A stretch of DNA of 64,000 nucleotides from Takakia lepidozioides (lineage: Eukaryota > Plantae > Bryophyta), in the NCBI GenBank assembly GCA_030704615.1, contig CM060734.1, positions 20,770,001 to 20,834,000 on the forward strand, read 5' to 3'. Under the pieces are notes generated by a model. The model had not been told where the DNA came from, did not search any database, and was given only the letters and a program-made list of their open reading frames with translations. Shown piece by piece: positions 1-30,944 of this stretch. The position numbers and the translations under genes were made by a program. Positions within the stretch are counted from its first letter, which is position 1. The number at the start of each line of letters is the position of its first letter.

Positions 1-795
1 AAAGTGCCGGTACGAGCACTAGCGATATTAGCGGGTATACGAGACAAGGTGTGCGGTTTAGGCCACCTTCACCTCCTGCGTCTTCTACGGAAGGTTCTGA
101 TTTGGATTGTGAATCAGGAGGACTCACACCGGCGGTGCAAGTTGTTTTCTTGCCATTGTTGTGGGACACAATGGAGGAGATGTATGGAGCCACCAAGGGG
201 CCACGTAGGTACTCTGGGGCGATGGGCACCATTGAGTTGGATGATTTTATCCAAGAGTTTGATAGTTGGTATAACTTGCAGCAAATGCGCAATCCACAAC
301 TATTACGCCTTTTATGGCATGGAAAGGGCTGTTTCAGCACCTTGAGGGGCCGCCCATAGATGATTACCATGAGTTTAGGCGGGTGTTGAGATCGAGGAGT
401 GGAGGATGTACTAGTCACCGGACTATGTCTCCATCACTAGAGGCACTAGAGGCACAAGGGCAACAGCCACACCGGCAGCTGCATCAGCAGCAGCAGCTAC
501 AACAGCAGCTTCCACGAGCAGTAGTGGGACTAGTGGTACAGCAACTACGACGTCCACCCAAGCTACTGCTGCACCAGCACCAGTGGCGGTGCCTGCCTTC
601 AACCCTGTTGTGGAGTTCTTCGAAGAGTTGAGAAGGAACTACCAAGGGATGAGGACAGAGAAGTTGAGGAGCTTGCAAGAGTTCCAGAGGAAGCCTACTG
701 AGAGTTTGAGGGAGACTTTCACTCACATGAGGCACTTGATTAATGTAACCCAAGGGGTTACGGAGGCTCAGGCAGTCCAGTTCTGGTACAGGATA
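1..795 (+). pseudogene. Family B gag fragment (frameshifted)
   Basis: Peptides TIELDDFIQEFDSW, MAWKGLFQHLEGPP and FQRKPTESLRE...AQAVQFWY match B2 gag at about 11975-12740. Confidence 0.85.
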
Positions 796-1535: not shown

Positions 1536-1576
1536 TTAGAGTTCAGTACGCGATCGTCATTGGGATCGGCCTCATC

Positions 1577-6128: not shown

Positions 6129-6641
6129 TGGGGACATCAACCTTGGAGCATGGGGGAGGAAATGCATGCTTAGCCCGGCTTAGCTAGCTCAAGAATCCGA
6201 TTGCAAAACTTGTATTGTACAAATTTTGTTATAAATGAAATGGTTTCCAAATGTTGTGTGTCATATTTTGTTTGGAATGGTGATGCATGGTTTGGTTGGC
6301 TAGTGTGTAGAATGCATGCTAGCTTACAAAAGTGGGAGAGGTAAATTGGGTTAATCGTGTATTTGCGCAGTGCTAAAATCGGGTGACTCCCACCCAAGGG
6401 GCAAGGAAACTTGCGCCTTCTTTGGGAGTTCACGTGCTAGTTCGCACCTGGCGCGTGCGTGTACTACAACTGCACTACCGAGGGGGTTGTCTTGTAGTGC
6501 GGGCTAACGTGGAAGCTACATGCTTCCGTTCACGTACTATAATCGTGTAGCCTCGGGACGAAGTCGAAGTGCAGCTTCGGCGTGTTCCTGTACCTCAGGC
6601 CAACATTCCAAGGCGGACCCAATTGTAGTGATTAGCGCACC

Positions 6642-7229
6642 ATGGTGACATCTGGAGTTGTCATGTTAGACGCCCAGGATGGCATTTTCTATTTGAGTGG
6701 ACCGAGAAGCAAGAGGTACCGGCCACTGCGAGTCTTGTTGGACTCGGGAGCTCAGCCATTGATGCTGGGCAGAGCTGCTATTGCAGGCTTGGGCCTCACG
6801 GAGGCGGATATGGAGCCGTGCCCTTTCCAGATACAGACATCTCTAGGAGGATTAGAGCAGGCTCAGGGCATGACACGGCGGGAGTTGGGGATCAGACTAC
6901 AGCCGGATCATCCTACAGATGGCTCAGTGATGAGAGCCATGGCCATTGTGACAGACGCGGTCTCGTACGATGTCCTTGTTGGTGGGGGTGTGGTGTACCC
7001 CATGGGCTTCACCCTGGATTTTTTGGAGGAGTCAGCTTCCTATAGGCCTGGATGGCAGTCAGGGGAGGGCCGATGTGTGCAGCTCCCTGTGACGTTCATA
7101 GGAGGAGTTACAGTTGCCCAGCGAGGCAAGATGTCGATACTGACAACATTCACAGCTGCAATGAGTTGGCCTGGAGAGTTGCTTGAGGGCAACGCTCATT
7201 CAGAGGATGTGTCGCCTCCGGGAGAGTAG
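6642..7229 (+). pseudogene. B1 retropepsin aspartic protease region
   Basis: RVLLDSGAQ catalytic motif and a SYDVLVG C-terminal motif. Confidence 0.85.
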
Positions 7230-7458
7230 GATGACATGTATGGTATGGTGGAGTTGCCTGCCATGGTTGCTCACACTCCATTGTGGGGCTCGAGCAAGGA
7301 CTTGCAGCGGGTTGCTGATCGACGGGTGCAACAAGCCTGGGTAGAGGCTTTTGTACCGTCAGGAGAGGAGGACAGTGTAGGGATTGCACTAGGACCACCT
7401 CATTTGTCAGCATTGGACACCACACCGATCGTATGGTAGTGTCCGGATGAAGGCATTG

Positions 7459-8400
7459 GACGTGTTTGGCGGGATCAGCACCGGATTGGCTGTTGTGCTA
7501 CATGCAGGTATATGGGTACGGCGTTACTTGTATGTAGAGAGGGATGAAACTGCACGACGCGTCTCACTCCGTCATGTTGCTCAGTTGGTGCAGTAGTACC
7601 TTGAGTTGTTGCTGGTGTCTGCGGTTCGTGGATATCAACAGGCCTTGCCAGCAGACATTTCGTTGCTGGGGGCACAGGATCTGGAGCGGGTTGGCTCCAT
7701 TGATTTGGTAGTGGCAGGTTGGCCCTGCAAAGGGTATTCATCAATGGCAATGGATTGCGAGACTCGAGGTCGGGTCTGTTTTGGGAGATGGTGCGGGTTT
7801 GCGCCACTTACAGCTTCATCAAGCTGTATCTCCAGCATACATCTTGGAGAATGTGCCACTGATGGGCAATTCTCGGGCCAGGGTGATGGCCAGTGTGCAT
7901 CAAGTCCGGTCGTGGCTTGGGTCAGCAGTGTTGCTGGATGCAGTTGCAGTAGGGTTGCGGGCTCATCGTCCACGATTATGGTGGACTAACTTGATGCCAT
8001 CCGCATTGCTCAAGCGTGCATTTGATGGGGTGCAGCGGCCAGCACACCTCACAGTTGATAGCATCTTAGATACAGGGAGGCAGTCTCAGCATGTGAGACA
8101 CGATGACCCTTCGCCTTTGGCAGTGGTCAACAAGGTGGGTCAACCACGAGCAACACTACCTACACTGCGCAGCTTCCCAGGATCACATGCTTTCCGGGAT
8201 AGTGGATCTGGGCTCCTGTGGGATGCTCACTTGCAGCAGTTAGTGGAGCCTAATGCCGACGAGCAAGAGCGGGCTATGGGTTTTTCTATTGGGACAACGG
8301 CAGTGCCTTCTCTTTCTGAGGCATCACGTCGTCAGGTGTTGGGGCAAGCGATGGATCTCAATTGCTTGACCTGGATTATCAGCTTGGCTATGGCTGAGCA
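7459..8400 (+). pseudogene. B1 C5 cytosine DNA methyltransferase domain (DNMT3-like) inside the polyprotein
   Basis: Manual translation across frameshifts gives motif I DVFGGISTGL, II YLYVERD, III ADIS, IV DLVVAGWPCKG, V GLRDSRSGLFWE, VI YILENV, VIII AHRPRLWWTNL, IX EQERAMGF and X RRQVLGQAMD. Confidence 0.9.
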
Positions 8401-8779
8401 ACGTAGAGTGCGGAGTGCACTCCCCTTGACGGTCTCTCTGCCTACCGAGACGGTACAGGAAGTGGGTGGGGGCGAGCCGGTGAGGACCACGGGGTGTAGA
8501 CATCCATGGCACACGTGGGAGGTGCTCGAGGTTCAGAGGGAGTTGGCAGCCAAGGCGGCTGTGATGGATGAGGTTGGGGATTCTTCTCGGGTTGAGGAGG
8601 TCCTCAAGGATGAGATGATGGGGCAGGATGAGGCCTTGTCATTGACTGAGTAGGCAGGGAGTACTGCTCATGAGGTTGCGGCATAGCAACCTCGGGACGC
8701 GTCTCCTACCTCTAAGTCTGCTGGACTTAATGTTGCAGTTACGGAGGACAATTGAGAGCCTGACATTGGACCCATTATC

Positions 8780-9226
8780 ACTGGAGGAGAGAGACGACGT
8801 ATACGGCGGTTCCTGAGGGCTTACAAGAATTGCTTTGCCTTCAGTTTGAATGATTTGGGAGCACTGAAGGGTCAGGAGATTCGTATTGACGGACACGCTA
8901 ATCTTTCGGAGACCCTATAGATACAGTGACATGGAGAGGTCTTTGATTCAGATGAGGACTCAAGATCTCTGGGAGGCTGGTTTGGTGGAGCTTTCTGGTG
9001 GAAAGTATGCTTCAGCCACGGTGATGCTAGCCAAAAATGATGTCTATGACAATTGGACGGAGAGACGTATGTGCGGTGACTACCGGGCTGTAAATCGTCA
9101 GACCAAGTCCGATAAGTATGCCATGCCCACACCTGAGGAGATCTTTGATGCCATTGGGCATGCCAAGGTCTTTAGCACTCTGGACTTGCAGTCCGGATAT
9201 CACCAGTTGCCGATCAAGGAGGCGGA
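8780..9226 (+). pseudogene. B1 reverse transcriptase, N-terminal half
   Basis: Motifs RRPYRYS, RMCGDYRAVN and FSTLDLQSGYHQLPI. Cut by the B2 insertion. Confidence 0.88.
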
Positions 9227-10019
9227 TGTTATGGTTTTATTTGTGATTAGTTAGAAATAATTATTTCTAACTAATTAGTACATTATATATTTATATTTGT
9301 ATTTTGTTGGCATTGGGACTTCATTTGGTTCCATGTGCCAAGTGAGGTGACGAACCTCACTTAGGACGTGGGGAGGGTGTTGCAAGGTTTGCAAGAAGAA
9401 AGCCTTGTGGTGTTTATGTATTCAAGGAGAGCCTTATTGAAAAGTTTGAGAGCTTGTGAAGAAGCTCTTGTTCTGCAAGTGTTGCAGGGTTTGAGGAGTT
9501 CAAGAAGAGTTCGGGTGTTAAGGAAGCAAGCGGTGCATGTGTGGAGCATGTGTGGAGCATGGTTTCAGCTTGTAGGAGTCTTCAACTTCATGCTTAGGAG
9601 AGCTATGAGTGGAGGTAGACATTTGATTTCTCTTTGGGGCAGAATAGTGTATTTGTGGAGCATGCTTTGAGTTGGGGTTTCAATCCCAAGCTTGGGAAGA
9701 GCATGTCTATGGAAGTGGCAAGTGCAGGGCTGGATTAGGAGCTCTAAGAAGTGAACTATGGCCATAGAAAGAAACACTATGAGTGCATGCGATGGCTCGA
9801 AGAGGGTATGCCATAGAAAGCTCAATAGCTTGTTCTATGTTTGTTTCAATAAGTTCCATAGAGAAAGAGAGCTTGTTGTGTGGCAAATAGCTTGCTCAGG
9901 GAGTTAGATGCACTCTTGGTGGCCTATTGATGCTCAAGAAACCAAGAACAACACCTCTGGTTGCTCCATAGAAGCCATAGCTCGTTGCAGCAATCGCAGA
10001 GGCAAAGCGGCGCAAACCC

Positions 10020-11190
10020 TAGCTTGGGAACGCGTGGGAACGCAAAAGAACGCGTGAGAACGCTTGGGAACTCCTTGGGAACTCGTGGGAACATTGTCCC
10101 AGAGTTGGGAGTACCACCGTTGTCCAATCGGATGAACTATTGAGCCAGTGGATGAAAATCGGCGCTCCTGGATGAGAATCGGTTGCAGTGGATGAAACTG
10201 TGCCAAAGGATGAAATCTCGTCAGCGGATGAAATATTGCGCTATCGGATGAAAAATCACGGCGACGGATGAAACTCCGTCAGTGGATGAAATCGTGGCAG
10301 TGGATGAACTATCGCGCTATCAGAGGAAAAATCACGGCCAGATGAAACTGCATCAGCGGATCAACTATCGTGCCATCAGATGAAAAATCGTGGAGACGGA
10401 TGAAACTGCGCCAGCGGATCAAATCATGCCAGTGGATGAAATATCGCACCGACGGATGAACTATCGCGGCGGATGAAGTATCGGACCTACGGATGAGAAA
10501 TCGCGGTTTTGGATGAAATTTGGTCAGTGACGGATGAAAAATCGATTAACTATGGATATTTTTGGAGTCTTTTGGGGCCTGCTTTGAGGACTATTTGGGG
10601 TCTATTGAGGCCAATATCTTACAGGTATTGGGGCCTGTTTGAGGACTATTTGGGATCTATTGAAGCCAATATCTTGCAGGCTTGTGGAGCCTGCTTGGGG
10701 TTGTTTGAAGGACTATTTGGGGTTTTTTGAGGCCAATGTTTGGCAGGCCTGTGGAGCCTTGTGAGGGCTGGTTGGAGGACGATTGGAGGTCTTTGGAGGC
10801 CCATATTGGGCAGGCTTATGGAGTTTTCTAAGAGCTCTTTGGGGGACTATTGGAGGTCCTTGGGGTCAAATACTTGGCAGATTTGAGGAGCTTCTTAAGG
10901 GCTGTTGGAGGTCCTTGGAGGCCAATATTTGGCAGATTTGATGAGCTTCTTAAGGGCTGTTGGAGGACTATTGGAGGTCCTTGGAGGCCAATACTTGGCA
11001 GATTTGAGGAGCTTCTTAAGGGTTGTTGGAGGACTGTTGGAGGTCCTTGGAGGCCAATACTTGGCAGATTTGAGGAGCTTCTTAAGGGCTGTTTGGAGGA
11101 CTCTTGGAGACCATATTGGGCAAGCTTGTGGAGCTATCGTGAGGGCTGGTTGGAGACCATGGAGGCCACTAATTGGCGGGCGCCTAAGGC
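10020..11190 (+). repeat. Three adjacent tandem arrays in the B2 leader
   Basis: GGGAAC-type ~10-bp units (10020-10105), GGATGAA-anchored ~20-bp units (10130-10545) and TTGGAGG-based 55/66-bp units (10560-11190). A mirror copy lies at about 28780-29860. Confidence 0.85.
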
Positions 11191-11790
11191 CTTTTGGTGG
11201 ACTGTTCAGAGTCCAAGTTTGCGAACTTCTTGAACCTCGGTGGGTCTATGTTAGGGGCTGATTGAGGGCAGATTTCAGAAGTTCATGGCAATAATTTGAG
11301 GGCTCTTGAGAGTTATTTGAGAGGTTATTTAAGGATAGTCTTATCTATTGCTTAAGCAATAGTGAATGTGAAGATAGGGGGAGTAATGGGATAAGAGCAT
11401 TCTGGGCTTAGAGATTGCTTTAGCTTCTCTTCTCTATAGTCTTCCATCATTCTTATAGGCCAAAGCTTTTCCGTAAGCGGATGTAGAGCTGGTTTGGATA
11501 GAGACTTGGCCATCTTGCAAGTTTATTGAAGCCGCAAGGAGATCGATGGATTTAAGCTGTGGGAGATGTTGTTGTTTGAGTTTCCTGTGTTTGGATCCTC
11601 CTCCCACACATGCATGCTTGACTGTGCGCCATGCTAGTTTGGTTTGGGCGCTTGCTTTTATAGGTGGTTGTGCCGGAAATATTGTGGCCGGCCAATCCTA
11701 GAGCGTACTGTCGGTGGTGAGACTGGGGTGATGACCAGCAGACCATCATTGTTTCTCTTATGGTGAGGCTGGGTTGATGACCAGCAGACC

Positions 11791-13611
11791 ATAGGAGTGC
11801 CTGCGGTGGATGCAGGTGCAGGTGCAGGTTCAGAATATGAATCTAGTATTCCAAACCATAAGCCGCAATAGGTTCTCTACCAGGTTACCTTGTGGAAAGG
11901 AGGATTACAGACGAGTTGATCGCCGGTTTGACTGTGAGTTTTCATCACGGAGGTGCCACCAGTTGCTGAGGAGAGTGCCAGTACAAGCACCAGCGATACT
12001 AGTGGGTATACAAGACAAGGTGTGCGGTTTAGGCCACCTTCACCTTCAGTGTCTTCTGAGGAAGGTTCAGACTCAGAGTTAGGAGGATTCTCGCCGAGGG
12101 TGCAAGCCATTTCCGTGCCATTGTTGTGGGATAAAATGGAGGAAATGTATGGAGCTACCAAGGGGCCACGTCGGTACTCGGGAGTTGTGGGCACCATCGA
12201 GCTTGATGATTTCATACAGGAGTTTGATAGTTGGTGTGATTTGCAGCAGATGCGCAATCCACAACTGTTTACGCCTTTTATGGCGTGGAAGGGGCTGTTT
12301 CAGCACCTTGAGGGGCCGCCTATGGATGACTACCATGAGTTTAGGCGGGGAAATGAGGTGGAGATTGAGGAGTGGCGACAATATTGGTCACCTGACTATG
12401 TCTCCATCACTAGAGGCACAAGGGCAGCGGCGATACCAGCTACACCAACATCCCCAACTGCAAGCACTAGTAGTGGGACAAGTAAAGATGGAGCTGGGAA
12501 ATCCACTCAAGCTCCTGTTGCAGCACCAGCACCCGTGCCTGCCTTTAACCCAGTTATGGAGTTCTTTGAGGAGTTGAGGAGAAACTACTAGGGAATAAGG
12601 ACGGAGAAATTGCGGAGCTTGCAAGAGTTCCAGCGCAAGCCTACTGAGAGTTTGAGAGAGGCTTACACGCGCATGAGGCGATTGATAAATGTAACCCAAG
12701 GGGTTACGGAAGCTCAAGCAGTCCAATTCTGGTATGGGATATTGGACAAGGAGCTAAGGAGAAGGGTGCGGGATGCAACTCTCCTACAAGTAGACCAACC
12801 CACCTTAGCAAACGTGTTTTTGCTGGCAGAGCGGATAGAGCTCAATATGGTGGAGGAACGAGTGGTCATGGTGGGGTTTGGTAAGGAGACACAACGAAGT
12901 GGGGCTCCTAGCCAACAACAACCACTACCCCAACGTGCTCAAGGCAACAAGGGGGTTCAGGCGAAGCCCAGGGAAGGACAGAGAGGATCTCAATTGTAGA
13001 GGTCACTTCCTTCATTCTCAGGCCAACAACAGTCGGGTGGGACATGTTGGGATTGTGGAGGACCCCATGTTAAGAGAGATTGCCCGGAGAGAGGCAAAGG
13101 GCCGGCACAGTCACAGCCTACACAACTACAGTATGGGCATTGTGGCAAGTATGGGCATGAAGAGGCCCATTGTTATGACTTGCATCCTGAGCTACGGCCA
13201 GGCCAGTTCCAAGGGAAAAATGGTGGCCGAGGACGAGGCAATGTAGTCCAGAGAGGTAGAGGAGGCAGAAGTCGCGGTGGAGGTTGTAACCAAAACCAAG
13301 GAGCACAAGGTCAAGGTCAAGGTCATGACCAAGGCATGGTGGATAGGCTTGCCCAACTAGAGCAACGTCTTGCTGCCATGGCCACTACTAATGTGGCGTC
13401 AGCTCCAAGGCCTGAGGTTCAAGCCCCACCTGTACAACCTCCTATGCCTAGGGAAGACCAGATTGGTATGGGCTTCATGTGTGGAGCCGCACTTGCTGGA
13501 CCATTGCATGTGGACTGTGCAGCTGCTGTCACTCGAGCAGCAACGCGTGCTCCTGAGCCAAGAGGAGCAGATGTGGATTTTGATCCACAAAGAAGGGAAG
13601 CAAGTCGATAG
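11791..13611 (+). pseudogene. B2 gag with two zinc knuckles
   Basis: The frame-1 reading extends upstream to about 11791 through stop codons that look CGA/CAG-derived. Knuckles CWDCGGPHVKRDC and HCGKYGHEEAHC. Confidence 0.75.
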
Positions 13612-14050
13612 ACAAGGCTTCCACAGTCTTTCACATTGGCTGAGACAGTGCCAACTACGCCATCGATGGTACCGGCTCACCCAAGTGTGTCAGAGGTAGA
13701 GCCACGAGTATCAGTGGGGATAGTTGGTATGGCTCGGGAAATGCCAGTGGGTGGTGCTGTAAAGCAGGGTGCAGCCAGTACGTTGTTGGGCGGCTACGCG
13801 GTTTTGCCAAGCTCCATTGTTTTCTGCGATGACCATTGCAATGCCGGGGATTCGGCCAGCTGCTGTGTTCAGACTAGCAGCTAGACTCTGTGAGAGTGGT
13901 GATGCATCGGCACTATCTGCGGGGATAGCGGATAATGTGCAGTGCATGGATATCATGGACTCAAGGGTGAAGACAGCCACAGCTGCACCATAGCAAGCGG
14001 CAGCTGCAAGGTTGCAGGAGATGTCAGCTAGACCAGCCATTGAGCGTAGT

Positions 14051-14724
14051 ATGGTGACTCCTGGGGTAGTCATGGTGGACAATCAGGATGGTATGTTTTA
14101 GTTGGGTGGCCCAGCCGGGAAGAGGTTTAGGCCACTGCGGGTCTTGTTGGACTCGGGAGCACAACCATTGATGTTGGGAAGAGCAGCAATTGTAGGCTTA
14201 GGCCTTACAGAGGTAGATTTGGAGCCTTGTCCTTTCCACATTCAAACATCTTTGGGCGGTTCAGAGAAGGCACGAGGGATTACACGCAATGAGCTCTTCA
14301 TTCGATTGCAGCCGACCATCCTACGGACGGCTCAGTCATGAGAGCTAAAGCCATTGTTACGGACGCGATGTCTTATGATGTGCTTATTGGTGGGGCTGTG
14401 TTATACCCCATGGGCTTTACTTTGGACTTTTGGGAGGAAACGGCATCCTATATGGCAGAATGGCAGTTAGGAGATGGCCGACGTGCACTGCTCCCAGTGC
14501 GGTTTATTGGGAATGTAGCGGTGGATCATAGGAACATGATGCCCACATTGGCTGCATTATCAGGGGTGGCGGCTTGGGGTGGTGAGCTCTTGGAGGGCAA
14601 TAGCTATGCAGATGATAGGCCATCACCTGATGAGGACAAACAATTGGCATACAAGGCTGATTTGCTTCCTCATGTGCCTGTGCATATTCCACTTGGGGTA
14701 CGGTTGGGAATTTGCATCGAGTAG
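14051..14724 (+). pseudogene. B2 aspartic protease region
   Basis: Motifs RVLLDSGAQPLMLG and SYDVLIG. Confidence 0.85.
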
Positions 14725-14859
14725 CAGGCGAGTGTGTGCACCAAGCATGGCGGAGGCCTTTCCATTGGTGAGTGTGGGGAGTTCAGTGACATCACCTGAA
14801 CCTCCTGAGTTAGCTCCTTTGGACACAGTGCCCATTACTTGGCAACCACCTGACTCAGG

Positions 14860-15815
14860 GATTTATTTGCTAGACCTGTTTGGAGGCATGAGCACTGGGC
14901 TTGCAGAGTGTTGCAAGCAGGGATTAAAGTACGCAAGTATTTGTATAGTAGAAGGACTGAGATTGCTCGGCTATTTCCATGTGCCACATTTCCTGCCTCA
15001 CACACCGTATCTTGAAGAGTGTTGCCCTCTCAACAGTTCAAGGGTATCAAAGGCCTTGGCCCGCAGACATTACCTTGCTGGGAGCGGATATTTGGCAGCG
15101 GCAATGGTCATTACTTGTGAAACCGGATGTGCTTGCCAATACACTCTCCCGCAGTCATGGGAATGGCTTGCATTGATGCACGATCGCATTGTGTTTGTGG
15201 GGAGATGTTGCGAGTGTTGCGGGACTTGCAGACGAAGAATTGCAACCTCTAGGCTACATCTTAGAGAATGTTCCTCTTATGGGGGATTCTCGGGCCAGGT
15301 TATTGCCCTTGTGCATCATGTGCAGTCTTGGATTGGATCGGGCGGTGCTATTGATGCATCACGGTGGATCACGCGCGCATCGTCCTCGATTGTGGTGAAA
15401 CCAATCTTGCACCACCAGAGCTGCTCAAGAGAGCATACATTCCATTCATCGGCCACCCAATCTCACGGTTGAAGGCATTTTGGACCAAGGGAGACAACCA
15501 CAAGGGGTGCGACATGATACCGTTGGCCACCTCTAGCAGTGGTCAAATCGAGTGGGGGGCCAGCCACGGTTGGGGCTTTGCCTACGCGCATGAGCTTTCC
15601 CTCAGCGCATGCTTTTCGAGACAATGGTCCTGGATTGATTTGGACAGTGTGCTACAACCAATTGGTGGAGCCCAATGCGGATGAGCAGAGCGGCAATGGA
15701 ATTTGCCACCGGCACTACAGTATGCCAGCTCTGTCAGAGCATCACGCCGCCAAGTGTTTGGGTCAAGCAATGGACCTAAATTGCTTGACATGGGTCATTG
15801 GTTTGGTGCATGACT
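14860..15815 (+). pseudogene. B2 C5 cytosine methyltransferase domain (heavily frameshifted)
   Basis: Motifs IYLLDLFGGMSTGLA, PADIT, GYILENVPLMG, SRAHRPRLW, EPNADEQ and LGQAMDLNCLTWVI. Motif IV is garbled (GCACQ). Confidence 0.82.
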
Positions 15816-16289
15816 GAGGCAACGGAGATTGCAAGCATTGATGGCTACTCTGTCACTCCATTGGATATGCATCGCTCCTCCCTGCCTAACCGGACGGTGG
15901 AGGACAGTGAGTGGGGGCGAGCACAGGATCGTGGGTTGCAAATACCATGGCAGATGTTGGGATGAGATGCACAAGAGAGAGTCATTGGATCTCTCAAGCA
16001 GCAGTATGAGGAGTGGGGAGAGCCATGGACTGAGGATCAGTTGGAGGCCAAGGTGACCAAGGTTTTTGAAGAGGTTTGTAGGATGTTTCTTGCGCATAGG
16101 ATGTCTCAAGGTGGCTATGGCGGAAGCAAGTGGAGGCTACGCCATCAGTCAGATTGGGCGGACAAGCCCAAAAGGGTTGCTATCTAGCAACCAAGGATTC
16201 GTCTCCTACCTCCAAGCCTGGGTACCCAAGGTTGCAGTCACTGAGGACAATTGGGAACCAGATGTTGGATCTACAGTCACCCAAGAGAG

Positions 16290-19280
16290 AGACGGAGGAT
16301 CCAACAATTTTCTAAGGGCTTATAGAATTGCTTTGCCTTCAGTTTGAAGGATTGGGGAGTTTGAAAGGTCAGGAGTTCGTATTGATTTGGCAATGACACG
16401 CGCCAATCTTTCAAAGGCCCTACCGGTATAGTGACATGGAGAAGTCATTGATCCAGTCACGGACTTTGGAGTTGTTCAAAGCTAGATTGGTGGAGTTGTC
16501 AGATGGGGGTATGCCTCGCAACGGTGATGCCAGTTAAGAAGGATATCTAATGGCATTGGACAGAAAGAAGGATGTGTGGGGACTATCGTCCTGTGAACCG
16601 TCAGACTAAGTCCGATAGATATGCCATGCCAACTCCAAAGGAGATCTTGATACCATTGGGCATGCCAAGGTGTTTAGCACATTGGACTTGCGATCCGGTT
16701 ACCACCAGTTGCCATTCCATCAAAGGGCTGACAAACAAAAGACACATTCTGGGGATTGACCAACATGGGAAGGATTGTTTTACCAATGGCATTTCTTACC
16801 ATTTGGGTTGAAGAATGCTCCTGCAGAGTTTCAAAGGGTCATGGATAAGATTCTCGCGGGGCTAGACTTTGTCCGGTGCTATATTGATGACATCATTGTC
16901 TTTTAGTGCTACGGTTGAGGATCATGAGAGACACCTTCAGGTGGTGTTTCAGCGCTTGAGCGCACGAGGGTTGAAAACTGCACCCCGAAAGTGCAAGTTC
17001 TTCCACAATCAGAATTGTATCTGGGCCACATGATATACCCTGGAGGTTGGGTGTTCAATAGACAAAGGTGGAGGCCATTGGCATGGCATTCCACGCCCCA
17101 TGGATGTGAGCCATAGTTTCGTGTTTTCATGGGATTGACAAACTACTATCGACGGTTGGTCAAGGGATTTAGCAACATTGCAAAGGCTCTTACCAAGTTG
17201 ACAAAGGTGGGTCAGGAGTGGCAGTGGGGGAGGAGCAGGAGGAAGCCTTTGAGGAACTCAATGTTCGATTGACTTCTGCTGCACCTATGTTGAGGCGGCC
17301 TAGTTCGGGGGCGGTCTTTTCCATCTACATACGGATTTGAGTATGCTGGGGATTGGAGCAGTGCTCACACAGGTGGATGATGAAGGAAGGGGTTCGTAGT
17401 GGCATATGCTAGCCGCTCGAACAATGATGCCGAGGCGAAGTATAGTTTCCTATGAAGGGAGCGTCTAGCTGCAGTATGGGCATTGGCACATTTCAGATAT
17501 GGCAATCTCTTCAATCTCTTCACCCTTGTCACGGATCACCAACATTGAAGTGGTTGATGGAGTCAGACAAGCTTACAGGAAGCTTGCTCGGTGGGCTACT
17601 TATGCTTCAAGAGTACGACTTCCAGGTGGTGCATCGAGCCGGTATTGTCAATCGGATGCAGATGGATTGGGTCGTAATCCATGCACAGCGAGCATGATGA
17701 TATTGGAGCTCGTTGGCATGGTGAGACGGATGAAGATGGTGCCAGGATGGCATGCATCGGCCTTTTTTGTGCATTCTAGCAATGGGAGCTCAAGCTGGTT
17801 CATCCCATGCGATTGGTCATGTAGATAGCGTGCATGACAATCCAGAGACTAGTGAGAAGTTTTGGTGGTGCTAAGGATGTGCATGAAAGGCAACAGTGTT
17901 TGGCATACCTTCGTACCGGAGAGACAGCAGCTAGTGTGACTGCTAAGGAGAGAGATCCGGTCCTAACAACGAGCCAAGAGGTTCAAGTGGGAGGGGACTC
18001 ATCTACTCCGGGTATGGGAGGATGGACGAGTGGGATTGTGCCTCATCCAATACAACGAGTGCGATTGTACGCCATGCCCATGAGGAGTTGGACATTTTTG
18101 GTCGGCGCACTCATAGTTTGCTGCAAGGGCAGTAATTGGTGGCGGGGCATGCACACGGATGTGCAACCAGTTAGTGGCAAGGTGCATGGTGTGTGATAGA
18201 GTACGGGCTTCTTTCAACGCTCCTACTCCACAATTGCATCCTTTACACCATTATGGGTTTGGGCTATCGTTGGAGTCCTGACTTTTCAGGCCCATTGCCA
18301 CTGACAATCGCCATAACAAGTATGTGCTGGTGATGGTGGAACACTTCTCCAAATGCATTGAACTGGTGGCATTGCCTGACAAGGCAAGTGAGGGGGTTGC
18401 GTATGCATTCTTAGATTGAGTGCTTAGCCATTTTAGTGCTCTAGCCGAGGTACTCACGGACCAGGGGAGAGAGTTCTTGGGGGAGTTTCAGGCTTTGTGT
18501 GAGCAAGCCTTGATAGATCACCGCACTACTTCTTGGGATCATCCTGAGGCTGATGGCTTGCGGAGAGAGTTGTTCAGACAGTCAAGAGAGGTTTGCGCAA
18601 GTACGGTTTGCAGAAGGGACACCTAGGAGATTGGGACCTGCAACTGCCTTGGCTAGCTATGGGCTATAGGTTCAGCAAACAAGCTTCACTTGCCTCCTTC
18701 TCACCTTACTTTTCTTTCTTTCGGCCGAGAGCCGGATTTGCCTGCATCTATGATCCGGATGTGTGGAACAAGCATGTGCCCAGCGAGCAGAGTTGTTCAA
18801 GAGAGTCATGCCTATGGCTTTTGAGAACCTTGCATTGCCCAACACTGAGACACATTGAGGTACGTCACTATACGTGGAGGGGGATATTGGCCAAGTGTTT
18901 GGCGTTTCCACCCTGGGGACTATGTGTATCTGTAGCAGACAACGCCTACGACCTTGGATGTCACAGCAGGACGTGTGATTCTAAGGGTTAGGGAGGTGTT
19001 GCCTTCAGGAGTGTTGATTCAGGAGGGTCGAGATGGCATGGTATGGAAGGACCATATGCGCAATTGTGCGCCATGTCACCTTCCACATGTGGATGTGAAG
19101 ATAGATTCTAACCTTGCAGTGGTACCTGCAGGGTTGCGTTGCATGCTATGTGGGCATGCTGGTGGCGCCGCAACCATGTTGGTGTGTGACAAATGCTCAA
19201 GGGGGTGGCACATGGATGCTTGACACCGCCACTTGAGGAGGTTCCTATCGGAGAATGGTTTTGTCCACGATGCCTTGGAC
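16290..19280 (+). pseudogene. B2 RT - RNase H - integrase - PHD finger (many indels)
   Basis: Motifs [37 protein letters not shown] and LRCMLCGHAGGAATMLVCDKCSRGWH...EWFCPRC. Confidence 0.85.
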
Positions 19281-19540
19281 AGAGGCAGTGGGCATGACAA
19301 TGGTGAGGCGCAAGTGACCCAAGGTCTACTAGTGGGGCTTCAATGCCACGGATACTCACTGAAGATCATGGATTGTATGAAGGCGACTAAGATGGGACTA
19401 ACGTTTGCACCCGGCCACTTGATCTATCGACTTCAGGTGTTGGGACTTGTGCGATTGAAGACCAAGCGATGATCTTATTGGGGTAGATACTTGCAAGCTA
19501 TCCGGTGTTAGAGGGACCTAATCACCAGCTAGGGGGCGAT

Positions 19541-19626
19541 TGTGGCGTGGCTTTCTTAGGACTATATGCTAGAAGTGTGGTTGGGACAGCGATGTATGTT
19601 GTGGCACGATGCTTAGGTGCACGACA
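19541..19626 (+). repeat. Repeat X copy 1 (~86 bp, TG...CA), directly after the PPT
   Basis: Sequence tgtggcgtgg...gtgcacgaca recurs at 19977-20061. Confidence 0.85.
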
Positions 19627-19628
19627 GC

Positions 19629-19975
19629 TATCATGGTTTTATTTGTGATTAGTTAGAACTAGTTATTTCTAACTAATTAGGATATTATACATTTATATTT
19701 GTATTTTGTTGGCATTGGGACTTCATTTGGTTCCATGTGCCAAGTGAGGTGGCGAACCTCACTTGGGACGTGGGGAGGTTATCTCCACGTGAGACGTAGG
19801 CAGGCTCGTCTTCTTCTAGTCGAGCCTCCCGAGGCCTCTCTCGCCGCCATAGCTCTAGTACTTGAGATGGAGAGTGGGTGAGGTCTGTATGGTGGAGTCC
19901 TTTAGCAAGGTGCCATTGGCTTGACTTATATAACGTGATAGAGTGGTTTCTCCTCTTTTCACCATTTCTGTATCA
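19629..19975 (+). repeat. Internal copy of the 5'-terminal repeat C of B2
   Basis: Matches the sequence from 9227 onward and the reverse complement of about 30598-30944. Contains TATATAA near 19927. Confidence 0.85.
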
Positions 19976-19976
19976 T

Positions 19977-20061
19977 TGTGGCGTGGCTTTCTAGGACTAT
20001 ATGCTAGGAAGTGTGGTTGGACAGCGATGTATGTTGTGGCATGATGCTTAGGTGCACGACA
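19977..20061 (+). repeat. Repeat X copy 2, the 3' terminus of B2
   Basis: Direct repeat of 19541-19626, followed by the TSD CGGA. Confidence 0.85.
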
Positions 20062-22457
20062 CGGACAAACAGAAGACGGCATTCTGGGGGAAGAACGCTT
20101 GAGAGCGCACAGATTGAAATTACATCCAGGGAAGTGCAAGTTCTTTCACAACTAGATTGAGTATCTGGGCCACATGATATATCCTGGAGGATTGGGGATG
20201 CAGCAGACTAAGGTAGAGCCATCGCACAGATTCCACGCCCCACGGATGTGAGCCGAGTTCGAGCTTTCATGGGGTTGGCGAACTACTATAGACGGTTCGT
20301 CAAGGGATTTAGTGCTATTGCAAAGGCTCTAACCAGCTGACCAAGGTAGACCAAGAGTGGCAGTGGGAAGATGAGCAAGAGCGAGCTTTTCAGGAGCTCA
20401 AGGCGAGGTTGACCTCGACGCCCATCTTGAGACGACCTATCAGGGGGCGTCCCTATCAGCTGCATACAGATTGGAGCATGCTGGGGCTTGGAGCGGTGCT
20501 CACACAGGTGGATGATGAGGGAAGAGAGTTCGTAGTGGCTTATGCTAGCCGCTCAAACAACGCTGCAGAATCTAAGTATAGCTCATATGAGGGGGAGTGC
20601 TTAGCTGTAGTGTGGGCCATGACACACTTCAGGTGCTATCTATACGGCAATCTCTTCACCTTTGTCACGGATCACCAGCCACTCAAGTGGTTGATGGAGT
20701 CAGACAAGCTTACGGGGAAGCTTGCACGGTGGGCACTTATACTCCAGGAGTATGACTTTCAGGTTGTGCATCGACCGGGTTTGGTCAATAGGGATGCGGA
20801 TGGATTGAGTCGCAATCCATGCACAAGCCAGCATGATGACACTGGAGCTCGGTGGCATGGTGAGACGGATGAGAAGATGGTGCCGGGATGGCATGCATCT
20901 GTTTTTTTTTGTATTTTGGCATCGGGAGGTCAGGTTGGACCTACAATAGGGATGACTGTAGACGGAGTGTCTGAGGACCCTAAGGCTAGTGATGAGCCAG
21001 GTGGTGCCAGAGATATACATGAGGATTCGGTTGTGTTGGACTACCTCTGCACTGGAGACACGGTAGCTAGTGTGACTGCCAAGGAGAGGGATCGGATCCT
21101 GCAACGAGCCAAGAGGTTCAAGTGGGAGGGGATACACCTGCTTCGAGTGTGGGAGGATGGTTGGGTGAGGATCGTGCCTCACCCAACACAGCGTGCACGA
21201 TTAGTGCGGCATGCCCATGAGGAGTTGGGGCATTTTGGAGTGCGACGCACTCATAGTTTACTGCAAGGGCAGTATTGGTGGCGTGGTATGCACACATAGG
21301 TGCAACAGTTCGTGGCTAGGTGCATGGTGTGTGACAGGGTGCATGCTTCATTCAACGGCCCTACACCATAGTTGCATCATTTACCCATCATGGGATTGGG
21401 CTACAGGTGGAGTCTTGACTTCGCAGGGCCGTTGCCACTGACGATGCGCCACCACAGATATGTGTTGCTGATGGTGGAGCACTTCTCCAAGTGGATTGAG
21501 TTGGTTCCATTGCCTGACAAGGCTAGTGAGGGGGCTGCGTATGCATTCCTGGATCGTGTGCTTAGCTGATTCGGTGCTCCAGCTGAGGTACTCACGGACC
21601 AAGGAAGAGAGTTCTTTGGGGAGTTTCAGGCTTTATGTGATAAAGCCTTGATAGACCACCGTACCACTTCTCGGGATCATCCTGAGGCCGATGGCTTGGC
21701 AGAGAGAGTGGTACAGACGGTGAAGAGGGGCTTGCGCAAGTATGGCTTGCAAAAGGGACACCTAGGAGATTGGGATCTTCAGGTACCTTGGTTAGCCATG
21801 GGCTACAGGTTTAGCAAGCAAGCATCACTTGCCTCCTTCTCACCATATTTCCTTCTCTTTGGCCGAGAGCCGGATTTGCCTGCATCTATTCGCAGGGAGG
21901 CTGCAGTAGTCCTCAACCTTGATGATCCGGATGTGTGGACACAAGCATGTGCCCAGCAGGCAGAGTTGTTCAAGAGAGTCATGCCTATGGCTTTTGAGAA
22001 TCTTGCTATTGCCCAACACCGAGACACATTGAGGTATGCCACTATACGTGGAGGGGGATATCGGCCAGGTGTTCGGCGTTTCCACCCTGGGGACTATGTG
22101 TATCTGCAGCAGACAATGCCTACGACCTTGGATGTTACAGCAGGACGTGTGATTCTAAGGGTCAGGGAGGTGTTGCCTTCAGGAGTGTTGATTCGGGAGG
22201 GTCGAGATGGCATGGTATGGAAGGACCATGTGCGTGATTGTGCGCCATGTCACCTTCCACATGTGGATGGGAGGATAGATCCCAACCTTGCAGTGGTACC
22301 TGCAGGGTTGCGTTGCATGCTATGTGGGCATGCTCGTTGTGCCGCCACTATGCTGGTGTGTGATCGATGCTCAAGAGGTTGGCACATGGGATGCTTGACA
22401 CCACCTCTTGAGAGGGTCCCTGATGGAGATTGGTTATGTCCACACTGCTTGGGATAG
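20062..22457 (+). pseudogene. B1 RT tail (catalytic core deleted near 20090), RNase H, integrase and C-terminal PHD finger
   Basis: KTAFWG jumps directly to RLKLHPGKCKF. Then LHTDWS, AYASRS, EGECLAV, HEELGHFG...CMVC, SLDFAGP, LTDQG, GLAER and a C4HC3 PHD at 22314-22448. Confidence 0.9.
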
Positions 22458-22718
22458 TGGCAGTGGATATGACTAGTGGCAGCTAACAAGACATGGGAGG
22501 CCAAGCTCATAGGAGTCAATACCCGAGATCTCAGGCTCAAGTTCATAGGTTGCAAGACGGCGACTAACGATGGGGTAACTCTTGTACCCGGCCTCTCGAT
22601 CTATCGAGTTTGAGTGTAGTAGGGACAGTGGTGGAGGACTTAGTGAGGCTATGGCCACTATCACATCTTGTGACTACCTGGACTTAGAGGGACCTAAGCG
22701 CGAGCTAGGGGGGGTGAT

Positions 22719-22948
22719 TGTGATGGACTAGTGGCTGCACTAGTGGTGGACTAGTGGTTGCACTAGTGGTGGCTAGTGACAGCCTAGTGGTGGGCTAGTG
22801 GCTGCACTAGTGGTGACTAGTGGTTGTCTAGTGGCAGCCTAGTGGTGCACTAGTGGTGGACTAGTGATAGACTAGTGTTTGGTGTGCACATGTGTTGTGT
22901 GGTTTTGGACAGCGATGTAGTTATGTAGCGATATGTATGTGCACGATA
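22719..22948 (+). repeat. 3' terminal repeat/LTR of B1 containing a CTAGTGG array
   Basis: Follows the PPT AGGGGGGGTG (22707-22716). Its 3' part (ggacagcgatgta...gtgcacgata) is homologous to repeat X. Confidence 0.75.
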
Positions 22949-23919: not shown

Positions 23920-24415
23920 AAACTGCTGTCCTCAAGGGTCTACCCACTCTCGGCACTAGACGGATTTTAAACTTAGGGCGGGAAGCCTACCTTTGAACAA
24001 CAAACAGAAGCAGAGAGGAAAGGGAGAGTGCAATTGCCCGTTGTGTGGGCAACCCGAAGACAATATTCATTTCCTGATTCACTGTCCGGGGTTCTCTCAC
24101 CAGAGAGACGCTCTCCTCAAATCTATCAAGGGAATTGTGCCTGTATCTCTGTTTACCAACTTTGAAAGTCTCGAGGCTGAGCCAAAAGCCCAGGCCCTTA
24201 TGGGGCCTAGTTATTGGGCAAACCACACACACTAGATTGATGCTTGTGTGAAGGGATTTCTAGAGAATATCTGGAAAACCCGTATCAATGTTTTACGTCA
24301 AGGTAAGTCTTACTACCGACATCAGCCCCTAACAGAGGTAGGTTTTGTCCCTTTGTGTTCCGCTCAAACTGGGTGTGGGGTCAATGGCCACAAGGCTACG
24401 ACAAAATACGTCTTA
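23920..24415 (+). mobile_element. 3' fragment of a non-LTR retrotransposon ORF2 (RTE/RTEX-like CCHC region)
   Basis: Reads FKLRAGSLPLN...CPLCGQPEDNIHFLIHCP and ends at a microsatellite. Confidence 0.6.
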
Positions 24416-26544: not shown

Positions 26545-27047
26545 CAGGCTTTGTCCAGCTCCAAAAGCCAGGTGTTGAGTGCCTTCCGATTTTGGACGCC
26601 CTTGAAGGTGTCGGGTTCCTTAGGCTTTACCTTAAACTTCGCCTTAGTGGATGCCGCCCTCATCATGTCTTTCAACGTCCCGCCAAACTGCGCCAACAAC
26701 CCTTCCCAAAAGGCTGCTGGCATGGGAGGCATCTGTTGGTCTGGCGGAGCCTCTGGAAAGTCCTCGGGCTCCGACTCCCCAAATTCCTCCCGTTCTTGAG
26801 CGGCCTCGCTTACAGAAGCATAAATCGCCTCTTCCATTTGCCGCTTCGGTGACACGTCGCCCCTACCTCACGAGGATCATTGTCTTTTGGACCGTTCCGC
26901 TTTTGCTTTGTCTTGCCCGACCCCATGGTGAGGCCGATCTCAAGGACGATCGCGTACTAAACTCTAGGCTCTGATACCAAGTGTCGCGCACCTCACTTCG
27001 GTAAGCTCCCCTTCAAGTCATAGTTACTCGCTTTGATGCGCGCGCCT
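26545..27047 (-). mobile_element. Family A copy 3 fragment (LTR end, PBS at 26968-26979, gag start)
   Basis: Peptide KAKFKVKPKEPDTFKGVQNRKALNTWLLEL. LTR terminus at 26982. Confidence 0.88.
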
Positions 27048-27624
27048 CCGTGAGTACCTCAGCTGGAGCACCAAATCGGCTAAGCACACGATCCAAGAAT
27101 GCATACGCAGCCCCCTCACTAGCCTTGTCAGGCAATGGAACCAACTCAATCCACTTGGAGAAGTGCTCCACCATCACCAACACATATCTTTGGTGGCGCA
27201 TAGTCAATGGCAACGGTCCTGCGAAGTCAAGACTTCACTTGTAGCCCAATCCCATGATTGGTAAAGGATGCAACTGTGGTGTAGGGGCGTTGAATGAAGC
27301 ACGCACCCTGTCACACACCATGCACCTAGCCACAAACTGTTGCACCTCTGTATGCATACCACGCCACCAATACTGCCCCTGCAGTAAACTGTGAGTGCAT
27401 CGCACTCCAAAATGCCCCAACTCCTCATGGGTATGCCGCACTAACCGTGCACGCTGTGTGGGATGAGGCACAATCCTCACCCGACCATCCTCCCACACTC
27501 GAAGTAGGTGTATCCCCTCCCACTTGAACCTCTTGGCTCGTTGCAGGATCCGATCCCTCTCCCTGGCAGTCACAGTGGCTGCCGTGTCTCCCGTGCGGAG
27601 GTAGTCCAACACAGCCGAAGCCAC
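27048..27624 (-). pseudogene. Family B integrase fragment (copy 3)
   Basis: Very similar to B1 21026-21600 (HEELGHFG, CMVC, MVEHFSKW). Confidence 0.88.
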
Positions 27625-28242
27625 TATAACCTACTCTTGACTGGTCCTCTTCCCAATCGTGCTTGCTCATGCATGTACACAATCTGAAACCGTGCCCTGG
27701 AATTACCTGCAGCATGGTGCTTTCATCTCTGAAGCTGAAGATGGAATGCCAAGGTCTACCACCTCGTAACCCACATCGCCTCCGCTTCTAACAATCAAGA
27801 GCTCCACGGTGTTCCTTGCATAACAACTTGGTTTCTCTCATTCTCAAGCAAAAACCACAAGTGCTACAACTAACTCGTATCTGGCACTCACAGATACGAG
27901 CTGATCTTTCTCAAGTGATAAAGAAGAAGAATACAAGCACAAGCTTATGCGACCTCACAAAGCTGAAGCATAAACTCATGCATATATAACCTCATCACTC
28001 AAATACAAGTCAAGCAAAGTGCACCCCACGCCATGGGGAATCCACACTACGGCGCCATAGCTAGGCGCGGTGAGGCTCAACTCGAGAAAGATGAGCCTCC
28101 CGCGCTTGCCGTGAAGATAACCACTCCAGGGCCTAAATTTGCCTTGACCCCTGGATTGACACTTGGGCCAATCCCAAATGTCAATATGTAAAAGCTAGCT
28201 ATTTCCTAGCTAGTTTCACACTAGTGGTAAAATAACTTGACA
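27625..28242 (-). mobile_element. Terminal fragment D, a distant relative of repeat C
   Basis: Starts TGTCAAG on the minus strand. Has a subterminal hairpin and patchy similarity to C (gctcatc...gagcctc, gcttgactt). Confidence 0.5.
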
Positions 28243-30944
28243 CCCCAGCCTCACCACCGACAGCACGCTCTAGGATTGGCCGGCCACAATATTTCCGACA
28301 CAACCACCTATAAAAGCAAGCGCCCAAACCAAACTAGCATGGCGCACAGTCAAGCATGCATGTGTGGGAGGAGGATCCAAACACAGGAAACTCAAACAAC
28401 AACACCTCCCACAGCTTAAATCCATCGATCTCCTTGCGACTTCAATAAACCTGCAAGATGGCCAAGTCTCTATCCAAACCAGCTCTGCCTCCGCTTACGG
28501 AAAAGCTTTGGCCTACAAGAATGATGGAAGACTATAGAGAAGAGAAGCTAAAGCAATCTCTAAGCCCAGAATGCTCTTATCCCATTACTCCTCATATCTT
28601 CACACTCACTCTTGCTTAAGCAATAGATAAGATTATCCTTAACCTCTCAAATAACTCTCAAGAGCCCTCAAATTATTGCCATGAACTTCTAAAATCTGCC
28701 CTCAATCAGCCCCTAACATAGACCCACCAAGGTTCAAGAAGTTCGCAAACTTGGACTCTAAACAGTCCACCAAAAGGCCCTAGGCGCCCGCCAATTAGTG
28801 GCCTCCATGGTCTCCAACGAGCCCTCACAATGGCTCCACAAGCCTGCCCAATATGGCCTCCAAGAGTCTTCCAAACAGCCCTTAAGAAGCTCCTCAAATC
28901 TGCCAAGTATTGGCCTCCAAGGACCTCCAATAGTCCTCCAACAGCCCTTAAGCGTTCCTCAAATCTGCCAAGTATTGGCCTCCAAGGACCTCCAACAGTC
29001 CTCCAAAGAGCTCTTAGAAAGTTCCATAAGTCTGCCCAATATGGGCCTCCAAGAACCTCCAACCGTCCTCCAACCAGCCCTCACAAGGCTCCACAAGCCT
29101 GCAAAACATTGGCCTCCAAGGACCTCAAATAGTCCTTCAAACAGCCCCAAGCAGGCTCCACAAACCTGCAAGATATTGGCTTCAATAGACTCCAAAATCA
29201 AGCAGGCCCCAATACCTGCAAGATATTGGCCTCAATAGATCCCAAATAGTCCTCAAAGCAGGCCCCAGAAGGCTCCAAAAATATCCATAGTCAGTCGATT
29301 TTTCATCCGTCACTGCCCAAATTTCATCCAAAACCGCAATTTCTCATCCGGAGGTCGGATACTTCATCCGCCGCGATAGTTCATCCGTCGGTGCGATATT
29401 TCATCCACTGGCGCAGTTTCATCCGATGGCACGATAGTTCATCTGCTGACGCAGTTTCATCCGTCGCTGCGATTTTTCATCCGATAGGACGATAGTTCAT
29501 CCGCTGCCACGATTTCATCGGCTGACGCAGTTTCATCCGTCGCCATGATTTTTCATCCGATAGCGCGATAGTTCATCCGCTGACGATATTTCATCCACTG
29601 GCGCAGTTTCATCCGTTGCCGCAATTTTTCATCCGATAGTGCGATAGTTCATCCGCTGACAAGATTTCTGCAACCGATTCTCATCCAGAAGCGCTGATTT
29701 TCATCCACTGGCTCAATAGTTCATCCGATTGGACAATGGTGGTGCTCCCAACTCTGGGGCAATGTTCCCACGCGTTGCTATGCGTTCCCACAAGTTCCCA
29801 AGCGTTCTCATGCGTTCCCTTGAGTTCCCAAAGAGTTCACACACATTCCCAAGCGTTCCCAAGCTAGGGTTTGCGCCGCTTTGCCTCTGCGATTGCTGCA
29901 ACGAGCTATGGCTTCTACGGAGCAACCAGAGGTACTGTTCTTGGTTTCTTGAGCATCAATAGGCCACCAAGAGTGCCTCTAACTCCCTGAGCAAGCTATT
30001 TGCCACACAACAAGCTCTCTTTTTCTATGGAACTTATTGAAACAAGCATAGAACAAGCTATTGAGCTTTCTATGGCATACCCTCTTCTAGCCATCGCATG
30101 CACTCATAGTGTTTCCTTCTATGGCCATAGTGCACCTCTTAGAGCTCATAATCTAGCCCTGCACTTGTTACTTCCATAGACATGCTCTTCCCAAGCTTGG
30201 GATTGAAACCCTAACTCAAAGCATGCTCTACAAATACACTATTCTGCCCCAAAGAGAAATCAAATGTCTACCTCCACTCATAGCTCTCCTAAGCTTGAAG
30301 TTGAAGACTCCCACAAGCTGAAACCATGCTCCACACATGCACCACTTGCTTCCTTAACACCTGAGCTCTTCTTGAACTCCTCAAACCCTGTAACACTTGT
30401 AGAACAAGAGCTTCTTCACAAGCTCTCAAACTTTTCAATGGGGCTCTCCTTGAATACATAAACACCACAAGGCTTTCTTCTTGCAAACCCTGCAACACCT
30501 TGTAACTTAAGAGCCATCTACCCAGCTCTCTTCCACACACAAGTGCTAACTATGCTAACACCTTGCACTCATAGATGTAAGCAGGTCTTCTTCTAGTGAT
30601 ACGGAAATGGTGAAAAGAGGAGAAACCACTCTATCACGTTATATAAGTCAAGCCAATGGCACCTTTGCTAAAAGACTCCACCATACAAACCTCACCCACT
30701 CTCCATCTCAAGTACTAGAGCTATGGCGACGAGAGAGGCCTCGGGAGGCTCGACTAGAAGAAGACGAGTCTGCCTACGTCTCACGTGGAGATAACCTCCC
30801 TACGTCCCAAGTGAGGTTCGCCACCTCACTTGGCACATGGAACCAAATGAAGTCCCAATGCCAACAAAATACAAATATAAATGTATAATGTCCTAATTAG
30901 TTAGAAATAACTATTTCTAACTAATCACAAATAAAACCATGACA
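28243..30944 (-). mobile_element. Second copy of the B2-type 5' terminus and leader (repeat C plus tandem arrays), abutting the PPR pseudogene
   Basis: Reverse complement of about 9227-11730, and retains ~290 bp that are deleted in the plus-strand copy. Confidence 0.88.

Follow-up and report, generated by a model that had tools for sequence, protein, structure and literature searches.

The PHD finger at the end of the integrase and a DNMT3-like methyltransferase occur together as a family rule in the lineage to which B1 and B2, two dead Ty3/Gypsy copies of the moss Takakia lepidozioides, belong. Both copies have the order Gag-protease-DNMT3-like methyltransferase-reverse transcriptase (RT)-RNase H-integrase-PHD. 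They lie in the window, by which we mean the whole stretch of 64,000 nucleotides that was analysed (assembly GCA_030704615.1, contig CM060734.1, positions 20,770,001 to 20,834,000 of the forward strand). Their features, in window coordinates, are as follows.

1..795, plus strand: B1 Gag fragment, 5' end outside the window (79% DNA identity to B2 11974-12742)
6634..7102, plus strand: B1 aspartic protease with LLDSGAQP (tblastn with protein P0163; weak PF13650 match)
7438..8422, plus strand: B1 DNMT3-like C5 methyltransferase with frameshifts and a stop (profile matches; motifs VFGG, GWPC, ENV, LGQAMD)
8684..8692, plus strand: B1 in-frame TAG CAA CCT between methyltransferase and RT (B2 and 12 of 13 close loci also have TAG CAR)
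8700..9227, plus strand: N-terminal part of the B1 RT, cut by the B2 insertion (tblastn, 76% to P0121; contigs join 9227 to 20073)
9228..20061, plus strand: B2, another copy of the family, inserted into the RT of B1 (begins TG and finishes CA; 4-bp target duplication CGGA)
about 14790..15810, plus strand: B2 DNMT3-like methyltransferase, heavily frameshifted (profile matches to E 4e-27)
16185..16193, plus strand: B2 TAG CAA CCA between methyltransferase and RT (CARYYA context)
19140..19282, plus strand: PHD finger of B2, interrupted right behind the His by a one-base frameshift (Pfam search of frames)
20062..20760, plus strand: C-terminal part of the B1 RT, YIDD segment missing, and RNase H (PF17917/PF17919; tblastn; contig joint 16952 to 20096)
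21183..21720, plus strand: B1 H2C2 finger and integrase catalytic core with three in-frame stops (PF17921 and PF00665, stops read as X)
22080..22260, plus strand: predicted beta-barrel (SH3/Tudor-like) integrase C-terminal domain, directly before the PHD finger (low-confidence model)
22314..22448, plus strand: C4HC3 PHD finger, intact, C-terminal in the B1 integrase frame (PF00628 match, PDB relatives)
22700..22948, plus strand: polypurine tract of B1 with its only 3' terminal repeat (B), which closes the element (motifs, similarity to repeat B in B2)

Structure of B1 and B2

The B1 element is split into three pieces (1-795, 6634-9227 and 20062-22948). The first interruption is a second Gypsy element (796-6633), only distantly related to B1, and the other is B2, whose removal rejoins the RT codons of B1 and which has CGGA at either side. 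In B1, the methyltransferase and the PHD finger are 14 kb apart because B2 was inserted between them. A contig of 2,173 bases from other copies runs from the end of the methyltransferase through the RT to 21120, and in B2 all domains follow in order, uninterrupted by insertions. The summed contig depth fell from ~1,060,000 to 183 past 22951, which shows both the 3' end of B1 and a much-repeated family, depth here not being copy number. The family was covered by one run guessed to be RNA, and this shows nothing on expression.

The terminal repeats of B2 are split. Repeat A is present at 9228-9376 and 19629-19976, and repeat B at 19539-19626 and 19975-20061, so that the layout is A-coding-tract-B-A-B. 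The layout A-coding-B-A-B was also found in locus L025, together with a 4-bp duplication, and in L034 and L074. A B|A joint was present in 20 of the 50 loci with at least 900 bases downstream, and the other loci, like B1, end in one B. The internal joint reads as though the 3' end of the element had been joined to its 5' end, and one guess for split repeats in an element with an integrase would be integration from a circle. A simple scan of B2, L025 and L034 found no self-priming complement of at least 11 bases. The 4-bp duplications CGGA and CATA, from two sites only, do not fit the NCGN of REXdb Phygy.

Further pieces of the B1/B2 family are located at 28241-30950, 45310-46054 and 27047-27622 on the minus strand and at 63245-64000 on the plus strand. 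The pieces elsewhere in the window include a 5' repeat A together with a leader and tandem repeats, and one is an integrase fragment 94% identical to B1. The second Gypsy family, probably a chromovirus, is represented by 796-6633 (plus), 34381-41338 (minus) and the fragment 26554-27047 (minus); it has a Tf2-like SH3 and, by eye only, a chromodomain-like tail. Its primer site is, we presume, tRNA-Met-like, and the LTRs of the minus copy at 34381-41338 are 99% identical. A young Copia element (52822-57552, minus) has 307-bp LTRs that are 98% identical. A decayed PPR gene with internally duplicated repeats lies at 30940-33320 (plus), with a copy of the B1/B2 family at its left edge; PPR genes of this kind are typical of land plants. 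In addition, an intact-looking host frame of 624 codons with a C3HC4 RING finger occupies 60133-62007 (minus), and another very-high-depth repeat, with no open frame identified, begins at 23946-24200 and extends beyond.

PHD finger at the integrase end

The C4HC3 finger that the earlier note had described as intact at 22314-22448 proved to be real. It reads CMLC-GHARCAATMLV-CDRC-SRGW-H-MG-C-LTPPLERVPDGDWL-CPHC and is followed by two residues and a stop (22455-22457). The PF00628 search that the note had proposed gave a match over the whole profile in B1 with 37.5 bits (E 2.5e-9), the curated cut-off being 24 bits, so the finger has both the C4HC3 ligands and a score above the cut-off that define the family. 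One frame from 20313, with stops read as X, contains RNase H, the H2C2 finger, the rve core and the PHD finger. The match is therefore not a chance one, and a chance origin was rejected on the whole-profile score and on this shared frame. A host PHD gene adjoining the element was likewise rejected as the source of the finger, as was a capture specific to this genome. The note had also let the finger end the B1 polyprotein. No intact polyprotein ends there, because the integrase frame has three in-frame stops upstream. Its second finger, placed in B2 at 19140-19275, is present, but it is frameshifted and each half scores only ~16 bits.

The finger is found at the C-terminal end of the integrase, which supports the view that it takes the place of the chromodomain of chromoviruses; no chromodomain match was obtained at the B1 integrase end, where the PHD finger is followed by the stop. 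The region directly before it (22080..22260) gave no Pfam match. Its strands come from a model with a mean pLDDT of 54, for which the best Foldseek matches were PHF1 N-terminal domains.

DNMT3-like methyltransferase

METHYLTRANSFERASE in the window, present as broken copies, was missed by Pfam. No Pfam match was obtained with the methyltransferase frames of the window and a family profile was needed, which was built from 13 relatives. It matched B1 7438-8422 in pieces at E 4e-40 and 1e-100, and B2 at E 4e-27. The presence of a methyltransferase in the PHD-bearing element, as claimed earlier, was thus borne out by a profile of relatives and not by Pfam. The open piece of B1 found 40 relatives, with Calypogeia first (73%), Marchantia next (best 62-70%) and then Sphagnum; the enzyme is 62-73% identical to the best liverwort proteins and 41% identical to K. 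nitens GAQ93235.1. Against the PDB, the family profile gave DNMT3A at E 6e-21, DRM at 3e-10 and HhaI at 1e-7. Foldseek with a low-confidence model (pLDDT 49), which serves as a cross-check only, returned DNMT3A/B as best. Judged by profile and Foldseek, the enzyme appears to be an unrearranged Dnmt3-type methyltransferase, as is characteristic of Gypsy-Dnmt3. The PC and ENV motifs are kept in nearly all streptophyte-type relatives, and many chlorophyte-type ones read ECQD or ECND.

Regularity of the pairing

An integrase-PHD query found 294 longer relatives. Among the 120 listed, 119 have the PHD finger and the one miss is truncated, a count that leans toward PHD holders since the query itself contained the finger. 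Named relatives include Marchantia, Klebsormidium, Coleochaete, Haematococcus, Pleodorina, Tetrabaena and a Chrzof1 gene model. The search from the methyltransferase side does not favour PHD holders. It gave 450 representatives at E <=1e-30, and the best 150 of these were examined: 64 have an integrase core, and in the other 86 the frame contains no integrase. Fifteen of the 64 end too early, 49 reach the integrase end, and 47 of these 49 carry the PHD finger. The two exceptions have long tails without a chromodomain and with one weak Tudor match. A search for long proteins with the P0163 methyltransferase, of low sensitivity, returned only 3 matches. P0163 itself is an intact protein of 2,811 residues with every domain.

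The same picture was obtained at the DNA level. Out of 80 metagenome loci, 29 have at least 4 kb upstream; 26 of the 29 hold the methyltransferase and 23 hold both domains. The three without the methyltransferase also have no Gag or protease matches and look 5'-truncated. At 80% DNA identity the 29 loci, which are not independent samples, fall into six families, and both domains occur in every family.

The position of the PHD finger is constant, always after the integrase, and that of the methyltransferase varies: before the RT in streptophyte-type elements and between RNase H and integrase in chlorophyte-type elements. P0048, P0068, P0179 and most long matches from the methyltransferase side are chlorophyte-type, often with ECQD for PCQ; such elements have 100-400 extra residues after the PHD finger, with one weak Tudor match. 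In P0068 the methyltransferase looks decayed and the PHD finger is kept. The lineage occurs in liverworts (among them Marchantia and Calypogeia), Sphagnum, Coleochaete, Closterium, Klebsormidium and chlorophytes. In a quick RT tree, whose single long-branch outgroup falls inside the family, B1 groups with P0191 and P0121 of Marchantia (SH-aLRT 91), and these belong to a larger clade that includes Coleochaete (99).

The zinc ligands are invariant from chlorophytes to liverworts. The PHD codons are under purifying selection: a comparison of five close loci, of which two are duplicates, gave a pN of 0.25 and a nearly saturated pS of 0.69. The Jukes-Cantor dN/dS of the integrase core is undefined because pS is saturated.

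Stop codon between methyltransferase and RT

L009, the most intact locus, has a frame of 1,369 codons for Gag, protease and methyltransferase, one stop, and a frame of 1,047 codons from RT to PHD in the same phase. At this point TAG CAR is found in B1 (8684), B2 (16185) and 12 of 13 close loci. The context was examined in 29 loci: the full CARYYA is present in B2, L009 and L011, most moss loci have TAG CAA CCC or CCT, and the other families have no common context. The Klebsormidium-like locus L026 has TGA CGG at this place. Methyltransferase and RT are thus in the same frame with one stop in L009 and L026 and with no stop in P0163, and GAQ93235.1 of K. nitens ends directly after the methyltransferase. 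CARYYA is described as a context that promotes readthrough in plant viruses (PMC4132726), and the TAG CAR of the element is likely a readthrough stop. The distance from methyltransferase to PHD finger is ~1,000 codons, with the two on either side of the conserved in-frame stop. The enzyme would then be made at Gag levels and the finger at integrase levels, an arrangement that fits separate jobs better than a unit like the ADD domain and its methyltransferase.

Ligand of the PHD finger

The residue two positions before the His, which we take to be the position of the aromatic-cage Trp, is Gly in the B1 finger, as the earlier note had observed. Among 119 homologous fingers it is Gly in 113, Ala in 4, Pro in 2 and Trp in none. 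According to general rules for PHD fingers, those reading H3K4me3 have an invariant Trp (PMC3241642); the B1 finger has neither this residue nor the aromatic cage.

The nearest solved fingers are those of CHD4, KDM5A (PHD1), KDM5B (PHD1), ATXR5, Lid, PHF12 and BHC80. The KDM5A numbering was mapped onto B1 by alignment, with residue roles from the accessible text of 10.1101/715474: L309, P331, G333 and W335 form the Ala1 pocket, D312 contacts Arg2 and is essential, V330 contacts Thr3, and E305 and D292 are the acids on the K4 side that read unmodified K4. B1 keeps the equivalents of L309, D312, V330, P331, G333 and W335. D315 is replaced by Ser, and E305 and D292 are both Ala, so the Ala1 pocket and the Arg2 Asp of fingers for unmodified H3K4 are there and their acidic K4 contacts are not. 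The same pockets recur in the homologues, with Asp after Cys3 (the D312 equivalent) in 113 of 119 fingers and, before the Trp, Pro in 98 and Gly in 94 of 104. An acid at E305/D306 was found in 0 of the 14 nearest relatives compared with 64 of the 105 more distant fingers, and an acid before Cys1 in 2 of 14 compared with 65 of 105.

With no cage Trp, the Ala1 and Arg2 pockets kept and the K4 acids lost, reading of H3K4me3 by the B1 finger looks unlikely and binding to the H3 N-terminus likely; the conserved pocket residues point to an H3-like N-terminus as the ligand. A preference for H3K4me0 is unproven, because the nearest clade has lost the acidic K4 contacts, and this loss may make mark selectivity, and even affinity, low. 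The earlier assignment to the H3K4me0 type therefore stands in part: there is no cage Trp and the nearest solved relatives read unmodified H3, but the K4 acids are gone.

Comparison with known elements

KnitGypsy-Dnmt3 of Klebsormidium nitens was described with Gypsy domains and DIRS-type repeats (de Mendoza et al., 2018, PMC5890265) and is named 'Gypsy-DNMT3' of streptophytes in 10.64898/2026.05.21.726589. Judging from domains and repeats, it is very likely the family of B1 and B2. The Gypsy order protease-RT-RNase H-integrase is shared, and the DIRS-like A-coding-B-A-B repeats are seen in B2, L025, L034 and L074, whereas B1 ends in a single B and has its 5' end outside the window. Differences are the land-plant host and the stop between methyltransferase and RT, the methyltransferase of KnitGypsy-Dnmt3 being described in the same frame as the RT (PMC5890265), and, in the chlorophyte relatives, a methyltransferase that follows RNase H and precedes the integrase. 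In contig L026 the integrase-PHD part is 93% identical to K. nitens GAQ93509.1 and the end of the methyltransferase 73% identical to GAQ93235.1, presumably one of the copies of PMC5890265. Because L026 joins a Klebsormidium-like methyltransferase to an integrase-PHD, the described KnitGypsy-Dnmt3 lineage very likely carries both domains, and the novelty that the earlier note saw in their combination is lowered. The word 'PHD' has no mention in the accessible text and three supplements of PMC5890265, though its figure 4c and main supplement may show the domain.

Chromoviruses such as MAGGY also have a chromatin reader at the integrase C-terminus, with likely the same job, but B1 differs from them in having a PHD finger and not a chromodomain, a methyltransferase, and the split repeats of its family. 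Gypsy-7a_cRei and REM1 of Chlamydomonas are Gypsy elements with a PHD finger proposed to guide insertion; as far as it is described, Gypsy-7a_cRei has no reported methyltransferase, and its PHD finger is listed before the integrase (PMC9940879). EpiLTRs likewise combine a reader and a cytosine methyltransferase in one LTR element, but according to the available account the parts there are a chromodomain, a DAM and a DNMT4-related enzyme, of independent origin (10.64898/2026.05.21.726589). The fingers of KDM5A/B (PHD1), ATXR5, CHD4 and BHC80 resemble that of B1 in being C4HC3 with no cage Trp and with Ala1 and Arg2 pockets, whereas B1 is without the acidic K4 contacts (E305 and D292 of KDM5A) and without D315. 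PHD fingers in retrotransposons have been called widespread (PMC6673714; 10.1101/2021.11.30.470311). The accessible text of the REXdb paper (PMC6317226) mentions neither PHD nor methyltransferase, and that of PMC12344493, PMC9985172 and PMC9406493 contains nothing on PHDs. In the openly accessible literature searched, we found no paper stating the pairing of PHD and Dnmt3. A 2019 opinion, as given in its accessible text, held that land plants such as tracheophytes have no methylase-encoding transposons (PMC6338049); bryophytes clearly have them.

Proposed role of the PHD finger

We hypothesize, with somewhat more confidence than doubt, that the finger in active copies of the B1 type tethers the integration complex to the N-termini of histone H3, as a chromodomain would. 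The conservation of the PHD finger throughout the family, its Ala1 and Arg2 pockets and its fixed place at the integrase end support this. The first frame, Gag-protease-methyltransferase, would be the abundant product, and RT-RNase H-integrase-PHD its readthrough extension. The protease of the element would separate the domains, and the methyltransferase may then act on the element's own cDNA within the particle. The finger would bind Ala1-Arg2-Thr3 of H3, probably disfavouring K4me3, and this binding could steer insertion away from active promoters. PHD finger and methyltransferase would be separate tools of one life cycle. The absence of a stop in P0163 and of the full CARYYA in most moss loci argues against the readthrough scheme. 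For a Chlamydomonas Gypsy with a PHD finger, intergenic insertion at 2.6 times chance is reported (PMC9940879), a bias that selection acting on the inserted copies may have produced. When tried in yeast, the Klebsormidium enzyme was without activity, a result that its authors called inconclusive (PMC5890265).

The earlier note had proposed a mobile reader-writer pair. Spelled out, the finger would guide or activate the methyltransferase in the manner of the ADD domain of animal DNMT3, and a K4-unmethylated target or the new copy would become methylated. The near-obligate co-occurrence (47/49) and the DNMT3 type of the enzyme speak for such a pair, as does the chlorophyte-type arrangement, where the methyltransferase stands directly before the integrase-PHD in one frame and an uncleaved fusion is possible. 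However, co-occurrence follows from the shared descent of one lineage, the K4-reading acids are lost, many chlorophyte-type enzymes have ECQD or ECND for PCQ, and P0068 keeps its finger beside an enzyme that looks decayed. In the B1/B2 family, moreover, the domains flank the conserved, readthrough-like stop at ~1,000 codons from each other, which argues against an ADD-like unit, and the proposal is not supported; we consider it unlikely. In its broadest form, an ancient, green-plant-wide Gypsy lineage would have a coupled reader and writer, with the finger docking on H3 without active marks and bringing the DNMT3 to the new copy or target. This appears equally improbable; if true, the lineage would offer a mobile equivalent of ADD-DNMT3, most plausible in chlorophyte-type elements, with methyltransferase, integrase and PHD finger side by side in one frame, and surviving in land plants despite the stated loss of such elements there.

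It is doubtful, too, that the finger is a structural or protein-binding tail of the integrase, serving folding, multimerisation or a non-histone host partner without reading a mark. The acidic K4 pocket is lost in the nearest clade and PHD fingers with non-histone ligands exist (PMC3241642), but a tail of this kind leaves the strong conservation of the Ala1 and Arg2 pocket residues (113/119; 98 and 94 of 104) to be accounted for. It is very improbable that the finger was acquired a single time and has persisted by chance as a neutral passenger. Both copies in the window are dead and two of 49 relatives have long tails without it, as a passenger might allow, whereas zinc ligands invariant between chlorophytes and liverworts and a pN well below pS largely refute this reading.

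Implications for Gypsy-Dnmt3 elements and their hosts

Each part of the element has a precedent, in the PHD fingers of Gypsy elements, in the Dnmt3 of Gypsy elements and in the reader and writer of EpiLTRs. New here is the census, in which the PHD finger is near-constant in Gypsy-Dnmt3 and the lineage extends far beyond Klebsormidium. The gene models P0185, P0186 and P0241-P0254 of Marchantia, P0205 and P0208 of Sphagnum and P0181 of Calypogeia correspond to the first frame of the retrotransposon, and some such bryophyte models are labelled DNA methyltransferase. Gypsy-Dnmt3 copies could in this way inflate the counts of host DNA methyltransferase genes. Furthermore, Marchantia, in which many copies are annotated as hypothetical genes, offers a ready system for PHD-steered integration and a packaged DNMT3.
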